Positions 2,031-44,175 of a DNA stretch of 64,000 bases are shown piece by piece. Positions within the stretch are counted from its first letter, which is position 1. Each line of letters begins with the position of its first letter. Made by a program: the position numbers and the translations under genes. The stretch comes from Escherichia phage vB_EcoM_PHB13. The DNA is taken from sequence record MK573636, one strand, 5' to 3'. The notes beneath the pieces were generated by a model. The model did no database searches. It was not told the origin of the DNA and worked only from the letters and a program-made list of their open reading frames with translations.

Positions 2031-3854
2031 ATGTCTGAATTTTTGCTGTTAGATGATCGCGCTCACTGTCTTAAGAGACCTTCAATGTACATCGGGTCAA
2101 CTACTTATGAATCACATAATCGTTTCCTATTTGGAAAATGGACCAAAGTTTCATACGTTCCCGGTCTAGTTAAAATTATTGATGAAATTATCGACAACTC
2201 TGTAGACGAGGCGATCCGCACTAATTTTGAGTACGCTAATGTTATTAGTGTGGATATAAAAGATAACATTGTGTCAGTAACAGATAATGGTCGCGGTATT
2301 CCGCAACATATTGTTACGACGCCAGAAGGGAAACAGATTCCACAACCAGTTGCTGCATGGACACGAGCTAAAGCAGGGTCTAACTTTGATGATACAAATC
2401 GTGTTACTATGGGTATGAATGGGATCGGAAGCGCGCTCACATCATTTTTCTCGTCCTGGTTTACTGGTGTGACGTGTGACGGAGAGAATGAACTGACCGT
2501 TCAATGTACCAATGGTGCAGAAAATATTAGCTGGTCATCCAAGCCGTCAAAACTGAAAGGAACTAAGGTTACGTTCTGCCCCGATTTCGATCATTTTGAA
2601 GGTATGATCATGTCACAAGAAATTTCAGATGTGATTTGCGACCGAATGTATTCATTGAGTGTAATCTTTCCTAAGATCACGTTTAAATTTAACGGCAAAA
2701 AGATAACCAGCAAGTTCAAGGATTATGCTAAACTATACAATGATGATCCGTTTGTCATCGAGGATAAAAACTTCTCACTTGCCCTAGTTCCTGCGGTCGA
2801 GGGAGAAGGTTTTAAATCAGTATCCTTTGCTAATGGTCTGTTTACCAAAAACGGGGGAACACACGTAGACTACGTGACAGATGATCTTTGTGAAGAGATT
2901 GTAAAACGAATCAAGAAAGAATATAAGGTTGATGTTACTAAAGCTGCGGTTAAGTCTGGATTGACCTGTATTCTTATTGTTCGTGAATTGCCAAACCTCC
3001 GTTTTGATTCACAGACAAAAGAACGATTGACTAATCCAACTGGTGATATCAAGCGTCATATTGATCTTGATTTTAAAAAGCTGGCTAAAGTCATTGCGAA
3101 GAAAGAAAACATTATCATGCCTATTATTGCTGTAGTCCTGGCACGCAAAGAGGCAGCAGATAAAGCGGCAGCGACTAAGGCAGCAAAGGCAGCAAAACGG
3201 GCTAAGGTAGCAAAACACGTTAAAGCTAACCTTATTGGAACTGACGCAGAAACTACCCTGTTTTTGACGGAAGGTGATTCCGCGATCAACTATCTGATCT
3301 CTGTACGTGATCAAGATTTACATGGCGGTTTCCCATTGCGAGGTAAAACTCTTACAACATGGGAACAACCGGAGGCAAAGATCGTTAAGAACGCCGAAAT
3401 TTTTAACATCATGGCTATCACTGGTTTGCAATTTGGTGTTGATGCATTGGAAGTTATGCAATACAAAAATATTGCGATTATGACTGACGCGGATACCGAC
3501 GGGATCGGGTCTATTAAACCTAGTCTGATCTCCTTCTTTGCACGTTGGCCTGAATTGTTCGAAGATGGACGAATCCGGTTTATCAAAACGCCTATTATCA
3601 TTGCTGAACCAAAGAAAGGTGATGATGTTCGATGGTATTATGACCTAGAAGATTTCGAGAACGACCGAGATAATATCAAAGGTTACAACATTCGATATAT
3701 CAAAGGTTTAGCATCGCTCACAGAATCAGACTATCATCGCGTGATCAACGATCCTGTCATGGAGATCATCACGTTACCGGAAAACTATAAAGAGCTATTC
3801 GATTTGCTCTATAGTGAAGATGCAGATCAGCGCAAAATTTGGATGCAATCATAA
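2031..3854 (+). CDS. 39: DNA topoisomerase II large subunit, fused gp39+gp60 equivalent (607 aa)
   Basis: N-terminal GyrB-like ATPase region matches T4 gp39; C-terminal IAIMTDADTDGIGSI...RIWMQS matches T4 gp60; one uninterrupted ORF. Confidence 0.9.
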   Translation: MSEFLLLDDRAHCLKRPSMYIGSTTYESHNRFLFGKWTKVSYVPGLVKIIDEIIDNSVDEAIRTNFEYANVISVDIKDNIVSVTDNGRGIPQHIVTTPEGKQIPQPVAAWTRAKAGSNFDDTNRVTMGMNGIGSALTSFFSSWFTGVTCDGENELTVQCTNGAENISWSSKPSKLKGTKVTFCPDFDHFEGMIMSQEISDVICDRMYSLSVIFPKITFKFNGKKITSKFKDYAKLYNDDPFVIEDKNFSLALVPAVEGEGFKSVSFANGLFTKNGGTHVDYVTDDLCEEIVKRIKKEYKVDVTKAAVKSGLTCILIVRELPNLRFDSQTKERLTNPTGDIKRHIDLDFKKLAKVIAKKENIIMPIIAVVLARKEAADKAAATKAAKAAKRAKVAKHVKANLIGTDAETTLFLTEGDSAINYLISVRDQDLHGGFPLRGKTLTTWEQPEAKIVKNAEIFNIMAITGLQFGVDALEVMQYKNIAIMTDADTDGIGSIKPSLISFFARWPELFEDGRIRFIKTPIIIAEPKKGDDVRWYYDLEDFENDRDNIKGYNIRYIKGLASLTESDYHRVINDPVMEIITLPENYKELFDLLYSEDADQRKIWMQS

Positions 3855-3857
3855 CAC

Positions 3858-3896
3858 TTGACATACAAGGGAGATTCTCTATAATGGGAGTCTCCC
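3858..3896 (+). promoter_or_regulatory. sigma70-type early promoter with embedded stem-loop (PeSL-like)
   Basis: TTGACA 3858-3863, 16-nt spacer, TATAAT 3880-3885; inverted repeat GGGAGA...TCTCCC (3869-3896) encloses the -10 and is followed by a T-run. Confidence 0.6.
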
Positions 3897-3919
3897 TTTT
3901 CTTTTATGAGGATTTAATA

Positions 3920-4949: not shown

Positions 4950-7058
4950 ATGAAAATGCATATTGATAATGAAGAAGTATTTGGCAGTGACTTGAGCGGT
5001 GCGGTTGATTTTTCACTGAAAGCAAGTAGCAAGGCTTTTATGGTGCTTTCTAAGAACACTTATCAATATTGTGAGCGTGCTTGCGTCCGTGAGTATTCGT
5101 GCAATGCTACCGACACTCACAAAGAAGCCGGAACCTTAGATCGTCCGTTTGATATTCATTTACCGACTGCAATCGAACCGTATTTTTCTGTGCGTGATTA
5201 TGGTACTGGTATTCCGTCTAAGAAAGAATTAGAACAACTGTTTACGGTTTACTTTGAATCAACAAAAGACCAGACTAATGACTATATCGGGTCTTTTGGT
5301 TTGGGTGCGAAGTCTGCTTATAGCTATACCGACACCTTTACAATCGTAAACTATTACAATGGTCGCGCTTATGGCTTTACGGCATTTGTGCAAAACTCTA
5401 TGCCGAAAATGGTGCAGATTTTCGACGAACCGACCTATGAAGACAATGGTCTGAAAATCACTATTCCGGTGAAAGAAAAAGATATTAAAACATGGCATCG
5501 AGAAGCACAATTTGTACTGCGTCATTTTGGGGAACATAAACCGAATATCAACGCAATCGAAATTAACTATTTCCCTAGCTTTGATAATTATTATGTGTGT
5601 AATGGGCGTGATAACGATTCCTACGTGGTATATGCAATCATGGGTAAGATCCAGTATCCAATCCCGTATGAATATATTCGCGGAACATGGTTAGAAGCTG
5701 TAAACCGCCAGCACCAGACCATTTACATTAATTTTGAGTTGGGTGATCTGGACCTGATGCCATCGCGTGAAGAAGTTCACTTGTCAATTGAGACTAAAGC
5801 GAACATCGAAAAACGTATTGCAGAAATCAATGAAATGATGTTGGAAAAGGTTAAAGAAAAGATCGCCAGCATTGAAACAGAGCGTAAACTTGCTCAATTT
5901 ATGAGCGAGTATTCATCGACTCAACGCAATATTATTGGCAAGATGGGTAAGATCGGACAATGGGATGATCCGGTAGCAATCTATAATAAGTTTGTGAATG
6001 CTGGCAAAGATTCACCCAATGACGTAGAAGGACAGGTGTATACTCTGTATCATACTCGTCACACAATCAGTAAATTGCGCCCTGCTTTCGTTAGCAGTCA
6101 ATACAACATTACGCATTTTGTATGGATGCATAAAGAAGATATTACGTGTCTTATTGATGATACCGATAAACCGAAACTGCGTGCACTGACTCTTAACGGC
6201 ATGGTCCAGGAATACGGCATCAATAAAAAGGTGCTGGTGTTCCGTCAGAACAACGAAAAACATATGGAGACTTTCGAGTACATCAAACAGTATTATGATG
6301 ATTCTGAAATGACCGTGATTAAGGTATCAGAGGCCGATGATCTTCGTGCTAAAGCAATTAAGCCGGAGAAGACCGAGCGTACACAACGTGAATCAACTCC
6401 TAAGCTGCCTAACGTGTATATCATGGAAAAGATTGGTGACAGTTGGCATAAAACCAGCCATCATATGAAAGCGGCAGAGATTCGCGAGTTATCAGGCTTG
6501 CACATGTTCCGCGTGGGTGATGCATTCGAAAGCCGTAGCCGTCAATCGATCTATAATGAAAATACATTACACACGGCGCTTGACTACTTCGGGGTAACAA
6601 AGTATATTATTACCCGTAACGAGACACAAAAATATCTCGTTGACGAACAATTGGAATGTGCGCTAGAATTTGTTCGCGGTAAGCTGGCTGGTCTGGCTAA
6701 GAAGGTTAAGACCAATCATCTGGGGTATGGCGAATATCTGGGTGTGATCACTATGTTGTTTCATGACGATGAACTAGAACGCTGTGTTCCAGAATTTATT
6801 GACAGACTGTACGGTCGTCATTATAATAAAGAGGTTTCCAAGTTACTCCTTCGTACTCGTTGGATTATGGACGAAGAAACTAAAAAGATCTGTGATGAAA
6901 AATTCACGGCAGCAAACGAACGAATTAAAGCAGTTTGTGCGAAGTTTAAAGAGAATAGCCCGTTACTGTATGATATTGTAGATAACTGGTATCGTATTCT
7001 GCATAACGACAAACGCGCACAAGACTTTATGAAACTGGTTAAGAATGTTAAATTTTAA
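4950..7058 (+). CDS. rIIA: rIIA protein (702 aa)
   Basis: Size and HATPase-like N-terminal region (DYGTGIP...GSFGLGAKSAY) match T4 rIIA; it sits between the topoisomerase gene and rIIB as in T4. Confidence 0.85.
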   Translation: MKMHIDNEEVFGSDLSGAVDFSLKASSKAFMVLSKNTYQYCERACVREYSCNATDTHKEAGTLDRPFDIHLPTAIEPYFSVRDYGTGIPSKKELEQLFTVYFESTKDQTNDYIGSFGLGAKSAYSYTDTFTIVNYYNGRAYGFTAFVQNSMPKMVQIFDEPTYEDNGLKITIPVKEKDIKTWHREAQFVLRHFGEHKPNINAIEINYFPSFDNYYVCNGRDNDSYVVYAIMGKIQYPIPYEYIRGTWLEAVNRQHQTIYINFELGDLDLMPSREEVHLSIETKANIEKRIAEINEMMLEKVKEKIASIETERKLAQFMSEYSSTQRNIIGKMGKIGQWDDPVAIYNKFVNAGKDSPNDVEGQVYTLYHTRHTISKLRPAFVSSQYNITHFVWMHKEDITCLIDDTDKPKLRALTLNGMVQEYGINKKVLVFRQNNEKHMETFEYIKQYYDDSEMTVIKVSEADDLRAKAIKPEKTERTQRESTPKLPNVYIMEKIGDSWHKTSHHMKAAEIRELSGLHMFRVGDAFESRSRQSIYNENTLHTALDYFGVTKYIITRNETQKYLVDEQLECALEFVRGKLAGLAKKVKTNHLGYGEYLGVITMLFHDDELERCVPEFIDRLYGRHYNKEVSKLLLRTRWIMDEETKKICDEKFTAANERIKAVCAKFKENSPLLYDIVDNWYRILHNDKRAQDFMKLVKNVKF

Positions 7059-7069
7059 GAGGTGATATT

Positions 7070-7201
7070 ATGACTAAACTGACCGCTATCCAGAAAGAAA
7101 CCATCCGTAAACAATACGCTCGCGGCTTGACTAAAGGCGAACTGGCACGAATCTATAATGTATCAGACCGCACAATCCGCAAGGTTGTAGAAGCAAAATA
7201 A
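7070..7201 (+). CDS. small helix-turn-helix protein (43 aa) resembling the rIIB N-terminus
   Basis: MTKLTAIQKETIRKQYARGLTKGELARIYNVSDRTIRKVVEAK; resembles the N-terminal HTH region of T4 rIIB; not in the ORF track (below 60 aa). Confidence 0.45.
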   Translation: MTKLTAIQKETIRKQYARGLTKGELARIYNVSDRTIRKVVEAK

Positions 7202-7204
7202 TTC

Positions 7205-7241
7205 TGGTATAATGATGTGAATCGGGCGGCGATAGTCGCCC
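7205..7241 (+). promoter_or_regulatory. possible extended -10 promoter plus leader hairpin upstream of rIIB
   Basis: TGgTATAAT at 7205-7213 with no clear -35; inverted repeat GGGCG...CGCCC at 7224-7241. Confidence 0.35.
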
Positions 7242-7263
7242 AACTAATAGAGGAATGAATACT

Positions 7264-8256
7264 ATGACTAAAGCAAAAATCACCGTCTCTGACCGTAACG
7301 TTCAATGCCTGGATTCTGCGAAACAAATCAAACTGGCTAAACAGTGGGGAGAAGGTAAGTTTACTACCCGCGAAGCACTTGCGGCAGCATTTGGGGTATC
7401 TCGTCGTACTGCCTCCCGTGTATTACTGATTCAGAAAGACGCAGTAGCGGAAGGTCGCAAGGCACTAGAAAAACGTAAAGCACGCCGTAAAACAAGTAAA
7501 GGAAAAGGCGGTGAACGCGCAAAAAAGCCCGTGACTACTACCTCAAAAATCGTAGCCATAGCCTCAACTAAGTTTATTACTATTACATGCGGTGACATTG
7601 TTTATACTGCTGATCCATCACATGTTAACTTTAAGGAAGCACTGGAAGCAGTTAAGCAGAATGATTTTATTAAAGCAATTACGCTGATTGACATTAAGAA
7701 AGCGGTTGAAGTATATTATCACGGCGCTTTCCGTATCGAAAATGGTATTGTGTATTATCATAATATTGTTCTTGATAATAATCTGACTCGTCGAGTTGTT
7801 GAGTCTATTAAAGAGAATAAGCCATATACGCACTATCTGAACTTCTTTGAGAAGTGCAAGAAAAACCCTAGCCGTAAGGCGGTAGATCGTCTGTTTGACT
7901 TCTTAGAACACAACGACATTGAGATCGGGGAAGATGGTTGTTTCTATGCATGGAAACGTGTTGATGTTGATTATAAAGATTTCTTTACTCATACGTTTGA
8001 TAATAGCCCAGGGCGCACGGTTAAAATGAAGCGTAAAGACGTTGACCCAGATGATGATCGCACTTGCTCTAATGGCCTCCACGTTGCAGCGAAACACTAT
8101 ATTCCACACTATAGCGGTGGACGAGGCCGAATCATTAAATGCAAAGTTGATCCTCGTCACGTTGTAAGTATTCCGAAAGATTATGCGAATGCCAAAATGC
8201 GCTGTCATCGTTACTATGTGGTTGAAGATGTAACCGAAGGTTTTAGCCATTACTAA
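7264..8256 (+). CDS. rIIB: rIIB protein
   Basis: C-terminal half (KAVDRLFDFLEHNDIEI...CSNGLHVAAK...RHVVSIP...YYVVEDVTEGF) matches T4 rIIB; AGAGGA RBS favours ATG 7264 over 7255. Confidence 0.85.
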   Translation: MTKAKITVSDRNVQCLDSAKQIKLAKQWGEGKFTTREALAAAFGVSRRTASRVLLIQKDAVAEGRKALEKRKARRKTSKGKGGERAKKPVTTTSKIVAIASTKFITITCGDIVYTADPSHVNFKEALEAVKQNDFIKAITLIDIKKAVEVYYHGAFRIENGIVYYHNIVLDNNLTRRVVESIKENKPYTHYLNFFEKCKKNPSRKAVDRLFDFLEHNDIEIGEDGCFYAWKRVDVDYKDFFTHTFDNSPGRTVKMKRKDVDPDDDRTCSNGLHVAAKHYIPHYSGGRGRIIKCKVDPRHVVSIPKDYANAKMRCHRYYVVEDVTEGFSHY

Positions 8257-8938: not shown

Positions 8939-9301
8939 ATGCTAGGTCATTCTAAAATAGAAGATTGCTCATTCAGAGCAATGAAAGATGATTTTTCGGT
9001 CCTGTACGCGTCTATCCGAGAGTTGTTTGTAGATTTTAAGCAATTCAGAGAATACAAAGGCGTTAAGATGCGGGAGTGGGTATTCTGGCCTTTCTATATC
9101 ATTACTCTGTTTTCTATGGTATTTTGTTTTGTCGGGATCACTATCGCTAGTTTTGTCACTTGCGTTTTCCTGATTATCAGGTGTATCATGTTTGCTTTGA
9201 TTGCTGCCCCGTTTATTGTTTCAATCCTTCCGTTAAAATGGCTATTGGATTGGGCTGATAAATCTGATAAAGTAAAGAATGTGATTTGTAAGCGTGTATG
9301 A
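8939..9301 (+). CDS. small membrane protein (120 aa)
   Basis: Long hydrophobic stretch (WVFWPFYIITLFSMVFCFVGITIASFVTCVFLII...) predicting 2-3 TM helices. Confidence 0.5.
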   Translation: MLGHSKIEDCSFRAMKDDFSVLYASIRELFVDFKQFREYKGVKMREWVFWPFYIITLFSMVFCFVGITIASFVTCVFLIIRCIMFALIAAPFIVSILPLKWLLDWADKSDKVKNVICKRV

Positions 9302-10673
9302 GGTGAAGATGGATAAAATTAGTCAAATTGTAAACACATTTACTTACCGCAGCCTTGAAAGCATTGTACATAATGAAGCTAAGGAATATGCGATCTATTC
9401 TGCCGAGGAACGCGGGATTCCTCAATTAGTGGATGGGCTTAAACCAGTGCAACGCTTTGTTATGGAGTGCGCACTTCAAAAGAGTAAAGGCGACCGTAAG
9501 AAATTCCGTAAGATGGCAGATATTGGATCTGGTGTTGCTGAGTTGGGTTATCACCACGGGGAAACTAATGCCGTAGAAGCCGGATCACTCATGGCGAATA
9601 CATGGAGCAATAATACTCCACTGCTTGACGGTCAAGGTAACTTCGGATCGCGTTTAGTCCAGAAAGCAGGTGCGGCACGTTATATCTTTGCTCGTGTGCA
9701 TGAAAACTTCTTTAAAATCTATAAAGATATGAATTGCGCACCTAAGCACGAAGATCTGGAACACATCCCGCCAGCATTCTACTTGCCAGTTGTGCCAATG
9801 GTATTGGCTAATGGTATTAGTGGTATTGCTACAGGGTATAAAACTGACATTTTACCGCATTCACTGGAAAGCCTTATTGAATGCACAGAGCTAGCACTTG
9901 CCGGAAAACTGGATAAAGAACCTAGTGTTCAATTCCCAAAATTCACGGGTAAAGTTATCCCGCGAGATGATCGCGATGGTGTGATTCTTGAGGGTACATA
10001 TGAACTAAACGGCAAGACTAAACTGACAATATCAGAAGTTCCTTATAAGTTCGACCGTGAAGAATATGTGGCGGTACTGGATGCGCTGGAAGAAAAAGAT
10101 CTGATTGTATCGTATAATGACCGTTGCTCTAAGGACGGATTCAGATTTGAAGTAACACTGAAACGCGATTATTTCAAAAGCGAAGATGAATCCGCTCGAC
10201 ATGAGCAAATCATGAAGGATTTTAAACTAACGCAGTTAGTAGCCCAGAATATCGTGGTAGTTAATGAACGTGGCTTAGTTGAAGTATTCGAGAAAGCGAG
10301 CGATCTGATCCGTCGATTCGTCGAAATCCGATTAGGGTATGTCGATAAACGCATTGAATTGATGCAAGCGGAAACGCTGGAAGCATACAATTATGCAATG
10401 GCTAAAGCCAAATTTATCGACCTTGTAATTAAGGGCGAAATCGAGCTACAGGGAAAGAAAAAGGCCGAGGTAATGCAATCCATCAATGGACATGAAAAAC
10501 TGCGTCCATACGCCGATAAGCTAGTTTCTATGCCATTGTATAGCGTTACTCAAGAAGAGTATGATCGACTGGTCAAAGATGCCGAGAAACATCATAGTGA
10601 ATATGAGTATTGGACAAAGACGACCGCAATGAAGGAATATAAGAAAGATCTTAAAGAACTTAAGAAGGGTTGA
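9294..10673 (+). CDS. 52: DNA topoisomerase II medium subunit (GyrA-like)
   Basis: GLKPVQRF...DIGSGVAELGYHHGE...LLDGQGNFGSR...RYIFARV matches T4 gp52; alternative start ATG 9309. Confidence 0.9.
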   Translation: MYEVKMDKISQIVNTFTYRSLESIVHNEAKEYAIYSAEERGIPQLVDGLKPVQRFVMECALQKSKGDRKKFRKMADIGSGVAELGYHHGETNAVEAGSLMANTWSNNTPLLDGQGNFGSRLVQKAGAARYIFARVHENFFKIYKDMNCAPKHEDLEHIPPAFYLPVVPMVLANGISGIATGYKTDILPHSLESLIECTELALAGKLDKEPSVQFPKFTGKVIPRDDRDGVILEGTYELNGKTKLTISEVPYKFDREEYVAVLDALEEKDLIVSYNDRCSKDGFRFEVTLKRDYFKSEDESARHEQIMKDFKLTQLVAQNIVVVNERGLVEVFEKASDLIRRFVEIRLGYVDKRIELMQAETLEAYNYAMAKAKFIDLVIKGEIELQGKKKAEVMQSINGHEKLRPYADKLVSMPLYSVTQEEYDRLVKDAEKHHSEYEYWTKTTAMKEYKKDLKELKKG

Positions 10674-10876: not shown

Positions 10877-11272
10877 ATGACTGAACGACGCATCACTTCA
10901 AATGGTTTGGGTACTCATCATGCATGGATGGTTGACCCAGACAAAAATCCTTATAAACTTTACGATACAACGATTAAACCGTGGAATAATGGCGTATGGA
11001 AAACACCACACACAACAGCACCTATTATGACTGATCCGAAACCGATTAGCCCGATGGCGGAACCAGTACAGATTAAGCCGTTACCTTACCAGATAACAAC
11101 GAATAGCATCGCCAACAAACAAGAAAATGATATTGATATGATCTACGAGATGATTAAACTTTGGCGTGATGTTTATCTGGGTGTTCTCTGCAACACAGAT
11201 AAAAGTGCACATGCGGCAGCGGTACTGGCATCTCATGCAGTAGACGAAGCCAAAAAGAAATTTAGTAAGTAA
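10877..11272 (+). CDS. hypothetical protein (131 aa)
   Basis: ORF with GAGAGG RBS upstream. Confidence 0.5.
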   Translation: MTERRITSNGLGTHHAWMVDPDKNPYKLYDTTIKPWNNGVWKTPHTTAPIMTDPKPISPMAEPVQIKPLPYQITTNSIANKQENDIDMIYEMIKLWRDVYLGVLCNTDKSAHAAAVLASHAVDEAKKKFSK

Positions 11273-11283
11273 CTGATTATTAA

Positions 11284-11310
11284 GCCGATCCTTGTGGTCG
11301 GCTTTTTTAT
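11284..11310 (+). terminator. rho-independent terminator
   Basis: Hairpin GCCGA...TCGGC followed by TTTTTT. Confidence 0.65.
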
Positions 11311-43248: not shown

Positions 43249-43561
43249 ACAAGTTGATAATATCGCACTTCGTGAAGCACTAAAGAAAATGTTTTCGGTC
43301 GGTACTCACTCTTTGCAGTTTACTAAGAAAGATGGTACTGTCCGTGAGATGATCGCCACGCGAGATCCGGCACTGATGCCATTTGAAACATACGAAAAAT
43401 GGTTAGTTCCTAATGTTGAAAAACCGCGTAAAGAATCAGAAACATCTTTGCCAGTATATGAAATTGCAGTTGAAGGTTTCCGTAGTTTTGGGCTTGATAG
43501 TCTGATTAATGTAGACGGGCTGACTCCAGCGCAGATCGTCGAAATTTACGGTGGCAGTTGA
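43235..43561 (+). CDS. hypothetical protein (108 aa)
   Basis: ORF overlapping the cd stop. Confidence 0.5.
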   Translation: MIMTEQVDNIALREALKKMFSVGTHSLQFTKKDGTVREMIATRDPALMPFETYEKWLVPNVEKPRKESETSLPVYEIAVEGFRSFGLDSLINVDGLTPAQIVEIYGGS

Positions 43562-43563
43562 CA

Positions 43564-44175
43564 ATGGAAACAAAAGATGATAATATCGTATTACCAGCGC
43601 CGGAAGAATGGAGACAAGCTGTAGGTTATCCGTGGTATGAAATCTCTAATTATGGTAGATTGAGATCTATTGACCGAAGTATCGAATTTTATAGAGAAGT
43701 TTCTCCCGGTAATATTAAGCTCGTAAAACAAAAACGTGCTGGTAAAATAATAAAACCAATTTTAGACCGATATGGATATTATTATTCAACATTGTCAAAA
43801 CAAAAAGACAATGGTAAAATCTCAGTTAAAGCCGAAAAGATACATCGACTTGTAGCAAATGCATTTCTAGGAGACGTTACCGGACTTGAGGTTAATCACA
43901 TCAATGGTGTAAAAACCTGCAATTATGTGTGGAATCTAGAAATAGTAACCTTACTAGAAAATATGAGACATTCATTTAGAACTGGACTCAATAACAATGT
44001 CGGTGAAAACCACTCACGGGCAAAACTGACAAATGCGCAAGTCGAAGAAATAATGCGGCTTAAAGGAAAAGTTAAGAAGCAAATTATAGCTGATATGTTT
44101 AATGTTTCTTATTGTTGTATAGCGCAAATACATTCCGGTCTGCGGAGAAATCCAAAGGTCGCGAAATATAAATAA
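43564..44175 (+). CDS. HNH homing endonuclease-like protein with C-terminal HTH
   Basis: YPWYEISNYGRLRS (NUMOD4-like), HRLVANAF...VNHINGVKTCNYVWNLE (HNH) and a C-terminal HTH-like region. Confidence 0.7.
   Translation: METKDDNIVLPAPEEWRQAVGYPWYEISNYGRLRSIDRSIEFYREVSPGNIKLVKQKRAGKIIKPILDRYGYYYSTLSKQKDNGKISVKAEKIHRLVANAFLGDVTGLEVNHINGVKTCNYVWNLEIVTLLENMRHSFRTGLNNNVGENHSRAKLTNAQVEEIMRLKGKVKKQIIADMFNVSYCCIAQIHSGLRRNPKVAKYK

Follow-up and report, generated by a model that had tools for sequence, protein, structure and literature searches.

The two rII genes, rIIA and rIIB, count among the most famous genes of molecular biology, and the start of rIIB is the segment in which the frameshift experiments on the triplet code were carried out. 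In the stretch of 64,000 nucleotides (nt) of Escherichia phage vB_EcoM_PHB13 analysed here (sequence record MK573636, hereafter the window), an additional open reading frame (ORF) of 43 codons lies between these two genes, and this raises the question of where it comes from and what it does. A sequence-only reading of this DNA had noticed that its product resembles the helix-turn-helix (HTH) region at the N-terminus of T4 RIIB and had proposed a duplicated or split-off rIIB module. We consider it probable that this ORF (the mini-gene, encoding the mini-protein) specifies a free-standing, very basic three-helix HTH that is a paralogue of the N-terminal domain (the head) of RIIB, with a history of tandem duplication and a function in trans. 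The three genes of the locus are the following:

4950..7058, + strand: rIIA, 702 amino acids (aa); PHROG 612 (RIIA) matches with E = 1.2e-187, related phages name it rIIA, and its Pfam matches to GHKL ATPases are weak
7070..7201, + strand: the 43-aa ORF (mini-gene), between rIIA and rIIB
7264..8256, + strand: rIIB, 330 aa; PHROG 609 (RIIB) matches with E = 5e-106, and PF26926 is on record for its homologues

The window belongs to Krischvirus (the RB49/Phi1/JSE group of the T4-like Straboviridae), as a 601-nt query around the mini-gene is matched at 95-99.5% identity by 58 phage records, all of them from this genus.

Probable kinship of the mini-gene with the RIIB head

The mini-gene is translated into MTKLTAIQKETIRKQYARGLTKGELARIYNVSDRTIRKVVEAK and ends at a TAA codon (7199-7201). 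Residues 4-41 of this product align by BLASTP with residues 7-45 of T4 RIIB, with 41% identity over 39 aa (pairwise E = 5e-4), so that the resemblance first noticed from the sequence alone has been borne out. When 50,697 phage records were searched by tblastn, the best non-self matches were all located within the first ~45 codons of rIIB genes, with identities of up to 52% (Jiaodavirus); Marfavirus, Slopekvirus, Winklervirus X20, Karamvirus CC31 and Dhakavirus Bp7 were also among them. The match of the mini-ORF to PHROG 609 falls on the profile positions that are occupied by rIIB N-termini.

A profile built on the mini-ORFs themselves is narrow and misses the RIIB head of the window (3 bits). 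Because it could not serve as evidence for kinship, we used a cross-validated profile of rIIB heads, made from the N-terminal 55 residues of each of 117 rIIB proteins with every Krischvirus-like sequence left out. Searched against all 1005 stop-to-stop ORFs of the window, this profile gave 49.9 bits for the mini-ORF (E = 8.5e-15) and 30.8 bits for the head of the phage's own RIIB (E = 7.9e-9), both over profile positions 2-44, while the next best ORF reached 10.5 bits. The alignment of the mini-ORF to the rIIB heads is essentially free of gaps. The cross-validation was five-fold, whole clusters at 50% identity being held out, and gave these scores:

Held-out true rIIB heads: median 55.8 bits, interquartile range 43-64
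Mini-ORFs: 47.5-55 bits; mini-ORF of the window 48.5
RIIB head of the window: 34.4 bits
The 149 closest non-rIIB HTH proteins: median 26.4 bits, maximum 47.9

None of the 149 non-rIIB proteins reaches the 48.5 bits of the window's mini-ORF. As this score is above all of them and within the interquartile range of the held-out heads, the mini-ORF behaves at the sequence level like a genuine rIIB head, which the head present on its own RIIB does to a lesser degree. The sequence-only reading had also ascribed a similar HTH to the rIIB that follows; this holds at the profile level (30.8 bits over positions 2-44) but not in a direct comparison, in which BLASTP gave no meaningful alignment between the mini-ORF and the phage's own RIIB, and the identity between the mini-ORF and the own head in the alignment is 28%.

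The position of the mini-gene points in the same direction as the profile scores. In seven other genera, Jiaodavirus, Marfavirus and Slopekvirus among them, as represented by T4, Bp7, CC31, X20, ValerieMcCarty01, PhiKpNIH-6 and phT4A, rIIB starts 0-14 nt past the rIIA stop and has its HTH within the first few residues, and it is the first ~45 residues of these proteins that the mini-ORF matches. In the Krischvirus lineage the slot directly behind rIIA where rIIB normally starts is filled by the mini-gene, which begins 11 nt past the rIIA stop (7056-7058). The mini-gene is not fused to the C-terminal domain of RIIB (PF26926): it has its own TAA, a 62-nt spacer follows, and rIIB lies in another reading frame. 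Given this separation, and that rIIB has its own Shine-Dalgarno sequence (SD) and ATG, the mini-gene would be a paralogue or fission product of the domain and not a RIIB protein. The profile scores and their cross-validation, the position at the usual rIIB start and the conservation described below all support the proposal of a duplicated or split-off module.

Most rIIB genes carry a single copy of this module, since exactly one HTH was found in 114 of the 120 rIIB clusters and more than one in 3 of them. One database protein, P0051, looked like a rIIB without a head and was rejected, as it is simply cut by the end of its contig. One relative, known from a metagenomic contig (L009; ENA ERZ27260015 k141_60519), has the mini-gene and also a RIIB of 459 aa (L009:4685-6064) with three tandem N-terminal HTHs, at aa 1-43, 56-102 and 144-189, the last two being 64% identical to each other. 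This triplication demonstrates that tandem duplication of the HTH module does occur in this lineage.

Conservation, start signals and predicted structure

The mini-gene is intact and at least 95% identical in the 58 phage records, most of which label it as a hypothetical protein (for instance ORF274 of Phi1, YP_001469618); proteins with 100% identity are annotated in Phi1, KFS-EC, MIZ4 and others. It matches PHROG 15481, a family with no function listed, over its full length (43/43 positions, E = 3e-34). The mini-gene is a member of this PHROG 15481/Phi1 ORF274 family without any sequence difference, and the entries give neither a function nor a link to rIIB. A search of 5.8 billion proteins returned four divergent 43-aa homologues with 86, 86, 77 and 69% identity, and a fifth one, of 45 aa, was found next to a rIIB with 63% identity. 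These five divergent lineages are represented by the metagenomic contigs L009, L010, L012, L014 and L015, which together with the window make six lineages, and the small gene sits between rIIA and rIIB on every one of the divergent contigs.

Across the six lineages the proportion of synonymous differences (pS) is 0.47-0.86, near saturation, that of non-synonymous differences (pN) is 0.02-0.24, and dN/dS is 0.02-0.33. A C-terminal segment of 21 residues, TKGELARxYNVSDRTIRKVVE, is unchanged in all six, the length is steady at 43-45 aa, and across the divergent lineages the mini-protein is 69-86% identical as compared to 54-63% for the neighbouring RIIB. By the pattern of substitutions the 43-codon ORF is a genuine gene under purifying selection, because it is intact in 58 records and present in five further lineages with a low dN/dS and a retained SD.

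The start signal of the mini-gene, as read from the sequence, is:

7057..7066, + strand: AAGAGGTGAT, the SD of the mini-gene; it overlaps the stop codon of rIIA

AAGAGGTGAT is close to a full complement of the 3' end of 16S rRNA, with a gap of 7 nt between GAGG and the ATG, and GAGGTGA or GGTGA adjoins the rIIA stop in all five divergent lineages. The overlap of the SD with the rIIA stop suggests translational coupling to rIIA. Thus, the two features on which the sequence-only reading had made its proposal depend, a start supported by a ribosome-binding site and conservation in related genomes, are both found: the SD is strong and conserved, and the ORF is under purifying selection in six lineages.

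Some sequence likenesses proved to be of no consequence or lie outside the family. The MTK with which both the mini-ORF and the rIIB of the window begin is a coincidence, as the relatives have MSK, MAK or MVK in the mini-ORF and MPR or MKR in rIIB. A database protein of 32 aa (P0159) has the same first 13 residues as the mini-ORF (MTKLTAIQKETIR) and differs thereafter (FHFSRGLTKCDVSRMYNFS); this could be a variant that has diverged or was cut short by its contig. Two small stand-alone homologues, P0253 and P0197, are encoded on unrelated short contigs and do not extend the family linked to the rII genes.

The AlphaFold2 (AF2) model of the mini-protein, built on an alignment of 30 sequences, has three helices (residues 6-18, 22-28 and 33-41) with a mean predicted local distance difference test score (pLDDT) of 86. 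Its best Foldseek matches in the PDB are the DNA-bound HTHs of the IstA transposase, CENP-B, Hin and gamma-delta resolvase (TMq 0.74-0.82, about 0.82 for the first three, with E-values that are not significant for a query of this small size). Superposition gave root-mean-square deviations of 1.0-1.6 A over 39-43 residues for IstA, CENP-B and Hin and about 4 A for the resolvase, and the Pfam matches are weak (CENP-B_N 7e-6, HTH_7 2.5e-3). The likeness to these HTHs (Pfam HTH_7 and CENP-B_N) is one of predicted fold class only, and the mini-protein differs from them in having no catalytic partner domain. The AF2 model of RIIB (pLDDT 88, predicted template modelling score 0.58) shows a confident HTH (helices 18-29, 36-43 and 47-56), whose helix pattern over aa 18-56 is the same as in the mini-protein, and then a long helix, followed by a disordered basic linker (aa 82-92) and a separate conserved C-terminal domain. 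This tethering of the head by a disordered linker to a separate domain makes fission structurally plausible in the model, and it is plausible that such a module could exist as a separate chain. Foldseek found no structural match in the PDB for the full RIIB model (TMq 0.2 or less), and we found no solved structure for either RIIB or the mini-protein. As a separate observation, the C-terminal domain (residues 96-330) is modelled confidently, with pLDDT mostly >90, yet has no relative in the PDB by Foldseek.

When compared to the HTH of T4-family RIIB proteins (T4 residues ~5-48; PF26926 proteins; PHROG 609), the mini-protein belongs to the same subclass and has the same length, the same place adjacent to rIIA and the same predicted three-helix fold. 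It differs in being a separate 43-aa chain with its own stop, in having beside it a second, diverged head on RIIB itself, and in being more basic (+7 against a mean of +2.6). The net charge of the free copies is +6 to +7 over 43 residues (+7 in the window), the highest of the 34 modules compared, and +2.6 is the mean of the other rIIB heads.

The rIIB start, the spacer and the surrounding genes

The start of the window's rIIB comprises these features:

7250..7254, + strand: SD of rIIB, GAGGA, 9 nt ahead of the ATG at 7264
first 12-15 aa of RIIB: N-terminal extension (M..IGLITESDRNVQ), preceding its own HTH
roughly 7297-7428, + strand: the diverged HTH of the window's own RIIB, 30.8 bits on the rIIB-head profile

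The start of rIIB is the ATG at 7264, according to the SD spacing and the Phi1 annotation (330 aa), and not the in-frame ATG at 7255. The segment 7255-7266 (+ strand) contains both codons (ATG AAT ACT ATG), the first of them adjoining GAGGA, and L015 likewise has ATG AAT ATT ATG. The recognition helix of the attached HTH reads SRRTASRV where the canonical one is SxDTIRRV, and this variant is kept in the window and in two related proteins (P0007 and P0008).

Between the mini-gene and rIIB, the spacer (7202-7263) and its surroundings contain:

7185..7213, + strand: promoter-like element, -35 TTGTAG (7185-7190), 17-bp spacing, extended -10 TGgTATAAT (7205-7213)
7224..7241, + strand: GC-rich hairpin, GGGCGGC-GATA-GTCGCCC, of 7 bp including one G-U pair, with a GAUA loop

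The -35 of this element matches the consensus at 3/6 positions and lies within the VVE codons at the end of the mini-gene, and its -10 is a perfect TATAAT preceded by TG. The whole spacer folds at -17.9 kcal/mol (z = -2.5 against shuffled sequences), and the region has no match in Rfam. A GC-rich hairpin of 7-10 bp, differing in sequence and position, is present in this spacer in all six lineages, and in four of the six a convincing sigma-70 promoter is predicted there. The spacer of L009 contains the same extended -10 as the window (TGgTATAAT), and in those of L010 and L012 there is TTGACA-17/18-TACAAT/TATAAT, the -10 of which is enclosed by the hairpin.

This layout is that of the promoter-early stem-loop (PeSL) cassettes of phi1 and RB49, whose stem-loops act as attenuators and which fall into five positional subclasses, one of them being the stem-loop downstream of the -10 (Arbiol et al. 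2010, PMC2839356; see also Comeau et al. 2014, PMC4122927). The spacer shares with them its intergenic place, with a stop codon on one side and the next SD on the other, and a GC-tract stem-loop, combined with a promoter-like element of the sigma-70 type, in the same layout in six lineages. The window copy differs from them in its weak -35 (3/6) inside coding sequence, in having no AT-rich UP region, and in its place between quasi-core genes and not among the ORFans of a hyperplastic region. By sequence, the spacer reads as a PeSL-type cassette as described in these papers, of which the window copy is an atypical and weaker example and those of L010 and L012 are canonical ones. Its hairpin may attenuate transcripts of rIIA and the mini-gene and/or form a 5' stem on the rIIB mRNA. 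The TGnTATAAT element and the leader hairpin that the sequence-only reading had placed before rIIB are thus both present (7205-7213 and 7224-7241), although a PeSL promoter/attenuator cassette that includes the hairpin is a better reading than a leader hairpin only. The papers on PeSLs and those on T4-family genomes mention neither this ORF nor a PeSL at rIIB.

Of the ~35 near-consensus sigma-70 promoters in the window, only one is not on the + strand and 14 come with GC hairpins, which makes the element ahead of rIIB one of a family. Its hairpin is unique within the window, and the spacer is therefore not a sequence repeat of the other PeSLs but only an element of the same kind. Examples of the others on the + strand are found at 3858-3898, 35689, 47566, 47959, 49103, 52362, 52607 and 54739, and they are densest at 47-55 kb. 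A canonical intrinsic terminator is located at 11282-11304 (+ strand), behind an ORF ending at 11272; its 9-bp stem is followed by TTTTATTTT, and it contrasts with the PeSL hairpins, which have no U-tract.

A further promoter lies upstream of the mini-gene:

6799..6827, + strand: perfect sigma-70 consensus promoter TTGACA-17-TATAAT (12/12), within the 3' end of rIIA and 271 nt ahead of the mini-gene

In L012 a promoter matching at 10-12 of the 12 positions occupies the same codons, and in L015 and L010 such a promoter is no more than ~12 codons away, in a part of rIIA where the protein is poorly conserved. The element at 6799-6827 is probably a dedicated promoter for the mini-gene (plus rIIB), to judge from this conservation.

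The surrounding genes and one distant ORF are:

2031-3854, + strand: topoisomerase gp39, followed by several small ORFs
9294-10673: topoisomerase gp52, with small ORFs between rIIB and this gene
43510-44172, + strand: HNH-type homing endonuclease ORF with NHINGV and a C-terminal AKLT-type HTH (GENHSRAKLTNAQVEEI) of the same broad subclass as the mini-gene

The large subunit of topoisomerase II (2031-3854) is a single ORF of 607 aa in the window, in which no gene-60 bypass arrangement was seen. Its T4 counterpart is split into genes 39 and 60.

Origin and role of the mini-gene

The explanation that we favor begins with a tandem duplication of the HTH-coding 5' end of rIIB in an ancestor of this lineage. 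The first and more canonical copy would have kept the usual slot of the rIIB start, abutting the rIIA stop, and would then have been severed from rIIB by a stop codon and a PeSL-type promoter/stem-loop cassette, while the copy left on RIIB presumably diverged, acquiring SRRTASRV instead of SxDTIRRV as its recognition helix. In its present arrangement the mini-gene would close the transcription unit of rIIA as its final cistron, being transcribed from the rIIA promoter and from the conserved consensus promoter inside rIIA, and it would be translated from the near-perfect SD over the rIIA stop. The hairpin of the spacer could attenuate or end the transcripts of rIIA and the mini-gene, and the spacer promoter could restart transcription for rIIB, so that rIIB would be separately transcribable. 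The mini-protein would take on in trans the task that the canonical RIIB head performs in cis, most probably the binding of nucleic acid (DNA), and this putative activity would support the system formed by RIIA (GHKL ATPase-like) and RIIB. The RIIA/RIIB system protects T4-like phages from prophage-encoded exclusion such as that by RexAB. Some bacterial gasdermin/CARD-NLR systems are triggered by RIIB (PMC10312443), and Iyer et al. (PMC7824862) regard RIIB as a transcription factor.

Several observations weigh against this explanation. The N-terminal segment of T4 rIIB is dispensable on lambda lysogens, K(lambda), as is known from the r1589 fusion and the Crick-Brenner B1 segment, which suggests that the role of the RIIB head is accessory or that the head is a separable module. 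The mini-ORFs are 23-29% identical to the attached heads of their own lineage, which is not above their identity to the heads of other genera (mean 34%), and a lineage-specific duplication is therefore not demonstrated by sequence. Among the relatives found, there is no intermediate with an in-frame fusion of a mini-like first HTH to rIIB, and in L009 rIIB begins as a complete canonical rIIB, which suits an extra copy no less than a split-off original; duplication with subsequent fission is indistinguishable from other orders of events. As for expression, the spacer promoter is degenerate in L014 and L015, that of the window owes its strength to the extended -10 only, and the hairpin has no U-tract and is not called by a terminator scan. 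Finally, the HTH subclass concerned (KLTxxQxxxIxxxYxxGxsxxELAxxYxVSxxTIxRV) is widespread and not specific to rIIB; sequence similarity alone is therefore insufficient and positional evidence is needed. When the mini-ORF profile was searched against 1.84 billion representative proteins, it gave 304 matches, headed by proteins with 4-7 tandem HTH repeats and by the C-terminal HTHs of HNH homing endonucleases, and it scored single HTH domains of non-rIIB proteins with up to 48.5 bits and rIIB heads with no more than 28 bits.

These last results bear on the rival that survives best, even if we hold it to be unlikely, namely that the mini-gene is a foreign HTH cassette without descent from rIIB, either the DNA-binding domain of a degraded homing endonuclease or an ORFan shuffled by PeSLs, and resembles the rIIB head because both belong to a common HTH subclass. 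The best single-domain matches of the mini-ORF profile in that search are indeed HNH C-terminal HTHs (P0144 with 48.5 and P0162 with 47.8 bits), small stand-alone HTHs in unrelated contexts are also among the matches, and homing endonucleases are abundant in T4-like genomes, the HNH ORF of the window with its AKLT-type HTH being one of them. Moreover, a PeSL, which has been proposed as a vehicle for the shuffling of ORFans, flanks the mini-gene on one side. The HTHs of the HNH proteins and of the tandem arrays (AKLTxxQxxxIRxxYxxG...YGVSxxTI) share the broad subclass with the mini-protein and score ~48 bits on its profile, but the mini-protein has no nuclease domain, no repeat array and no helix-3 tail (..W.H), and those proteins score below the mini-ORF on the rIIB-head profile, on which it beats all 149 non-rIIB proteins and lies within the held-out range. 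The HTH of the window's own HNH ORF is far from the mini-ORF (3.7 bits). In addition, there is neither a PeSL nor a nuclease remnant upstream, where the mini-gene abuts the rIIA stop as rIIB does elsewhere, and no nuclease-like ORF (HNH, GIY-YIG, LAGLIDADG or a remnant of these) was found in 7059-7263 on either strand. The arrangement is also stable across lineages whose synonymous sites are saturated, which again argues against a foreign cassette.

Other alternatives accept the origin from the rIIB head and concern the role of the free copy. It could be a third subunit of the RIIA/RIIB counter-defence machine, in which case fission would have been adaptive in the arms race between phage and host defence: nucleic acids or partners would be bound in trans, and the attached copy and its linker would be freed to diverge and duplicate, for example evading host systems that sense RIIB. 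We regard this extended version as doubtful; if true, the start of rIIB, long taken as 'dispensable', would have a target of its own and form a functional module that can be separated. Less probable still is that the free HTH has another job, either as an autonomous regulator, for example repressing or activating early promoters or binding to the GC stem-loops of PeSLs, or as a mimic or competitor of the RIIB head. The mini-protein is highly basic, its fold is closest to the DNA-binding HTHs of transposases and recombinases, and its recognition helix is invariant, all of which would suit a regulator. A DNA-binding protein recognising PeSL stem-loops was the subject of speculation by Arbiol et al. 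(PMC2839356), and the view of RIIB as a transcription factor (Iyer et al., PMC7824862) would fit as well. However, no repeated candidate operator was identified, the hairpin sequences of the PeSLs differ among lineages while the recognition helix does not, and the strict linkage to rIIA and rIIB in every lineage favours a role inside that system.

Two further proposals have hardly any probability left. The first one, that insertion of the promoter cassette left the former 5' end of rIIB to decay without a function, or that the ORF is there by chance, could appeal to its very short length and to the lack of a functional annotation (hypothetical protein in GenBank, unknown function in PHROG 15481), but it is effectively refuted by the substitution pattern (dN/dS 0.02-0.33 with pS up to 0.86 and 21 consecutive residues invariant in six lineages), and length and SD are kept in a mini-protein better conserved (69-86%) than RIIB (54-63%). 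The second one, that the mini-ORF and rIIB are joined into a two-HTH RIIB by a gene-60-style bypass or by frameshifting over the hairpin gap, has in its favour that T4-like phages are the classic home of translational bypass, that a stable hairpin stands directly behind the stop codon in the gap (55-73 nt) and that the last sense codon of the mini-gene, AAA, recurs as codon 3 of rIIB in the window. It is rejected because the take-off and landing codons are not conserved (the last sense codon is AAA, GCT or AAG, GCT being unmatched in L009 and AAA absent from the first rIIB codons of L012), because rIIB has its own strong SD and ATG in every lineage, and because the residues of RIIB from that ATG onwards are conserved as protein (M.RIGLITESDRNVQ); the position and sequence of the hairpin vary as well, and in the window the mini-ORF and rIIB do not share a reading frame.

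If the mini-gene is a free paralogue of the RIIB head, as we propose, the result is incremental in that it describes a domain duplication or fission without a new type of system. The gene itself was already annotated, and what is new here is the relation of the PHROG 15481 family to the RIIB head, together with the wider metagenomic lineage. This family of unknown function, present as hypothetical proteins in at least 58 genomes, can accordingly be re-annotated, and a PeSL-type cassette is documented between two quasi-core genes and not among ORFans. The repeated use of the rIIB head as an independent module, free in Krischvirus-type phages and triplicated in one relative, suggests that it has a function of its own, and the mini-gene, as a naturally isolated RIIB head of 43 residues, would provide a handle on the function of the RIIB N-terminus.

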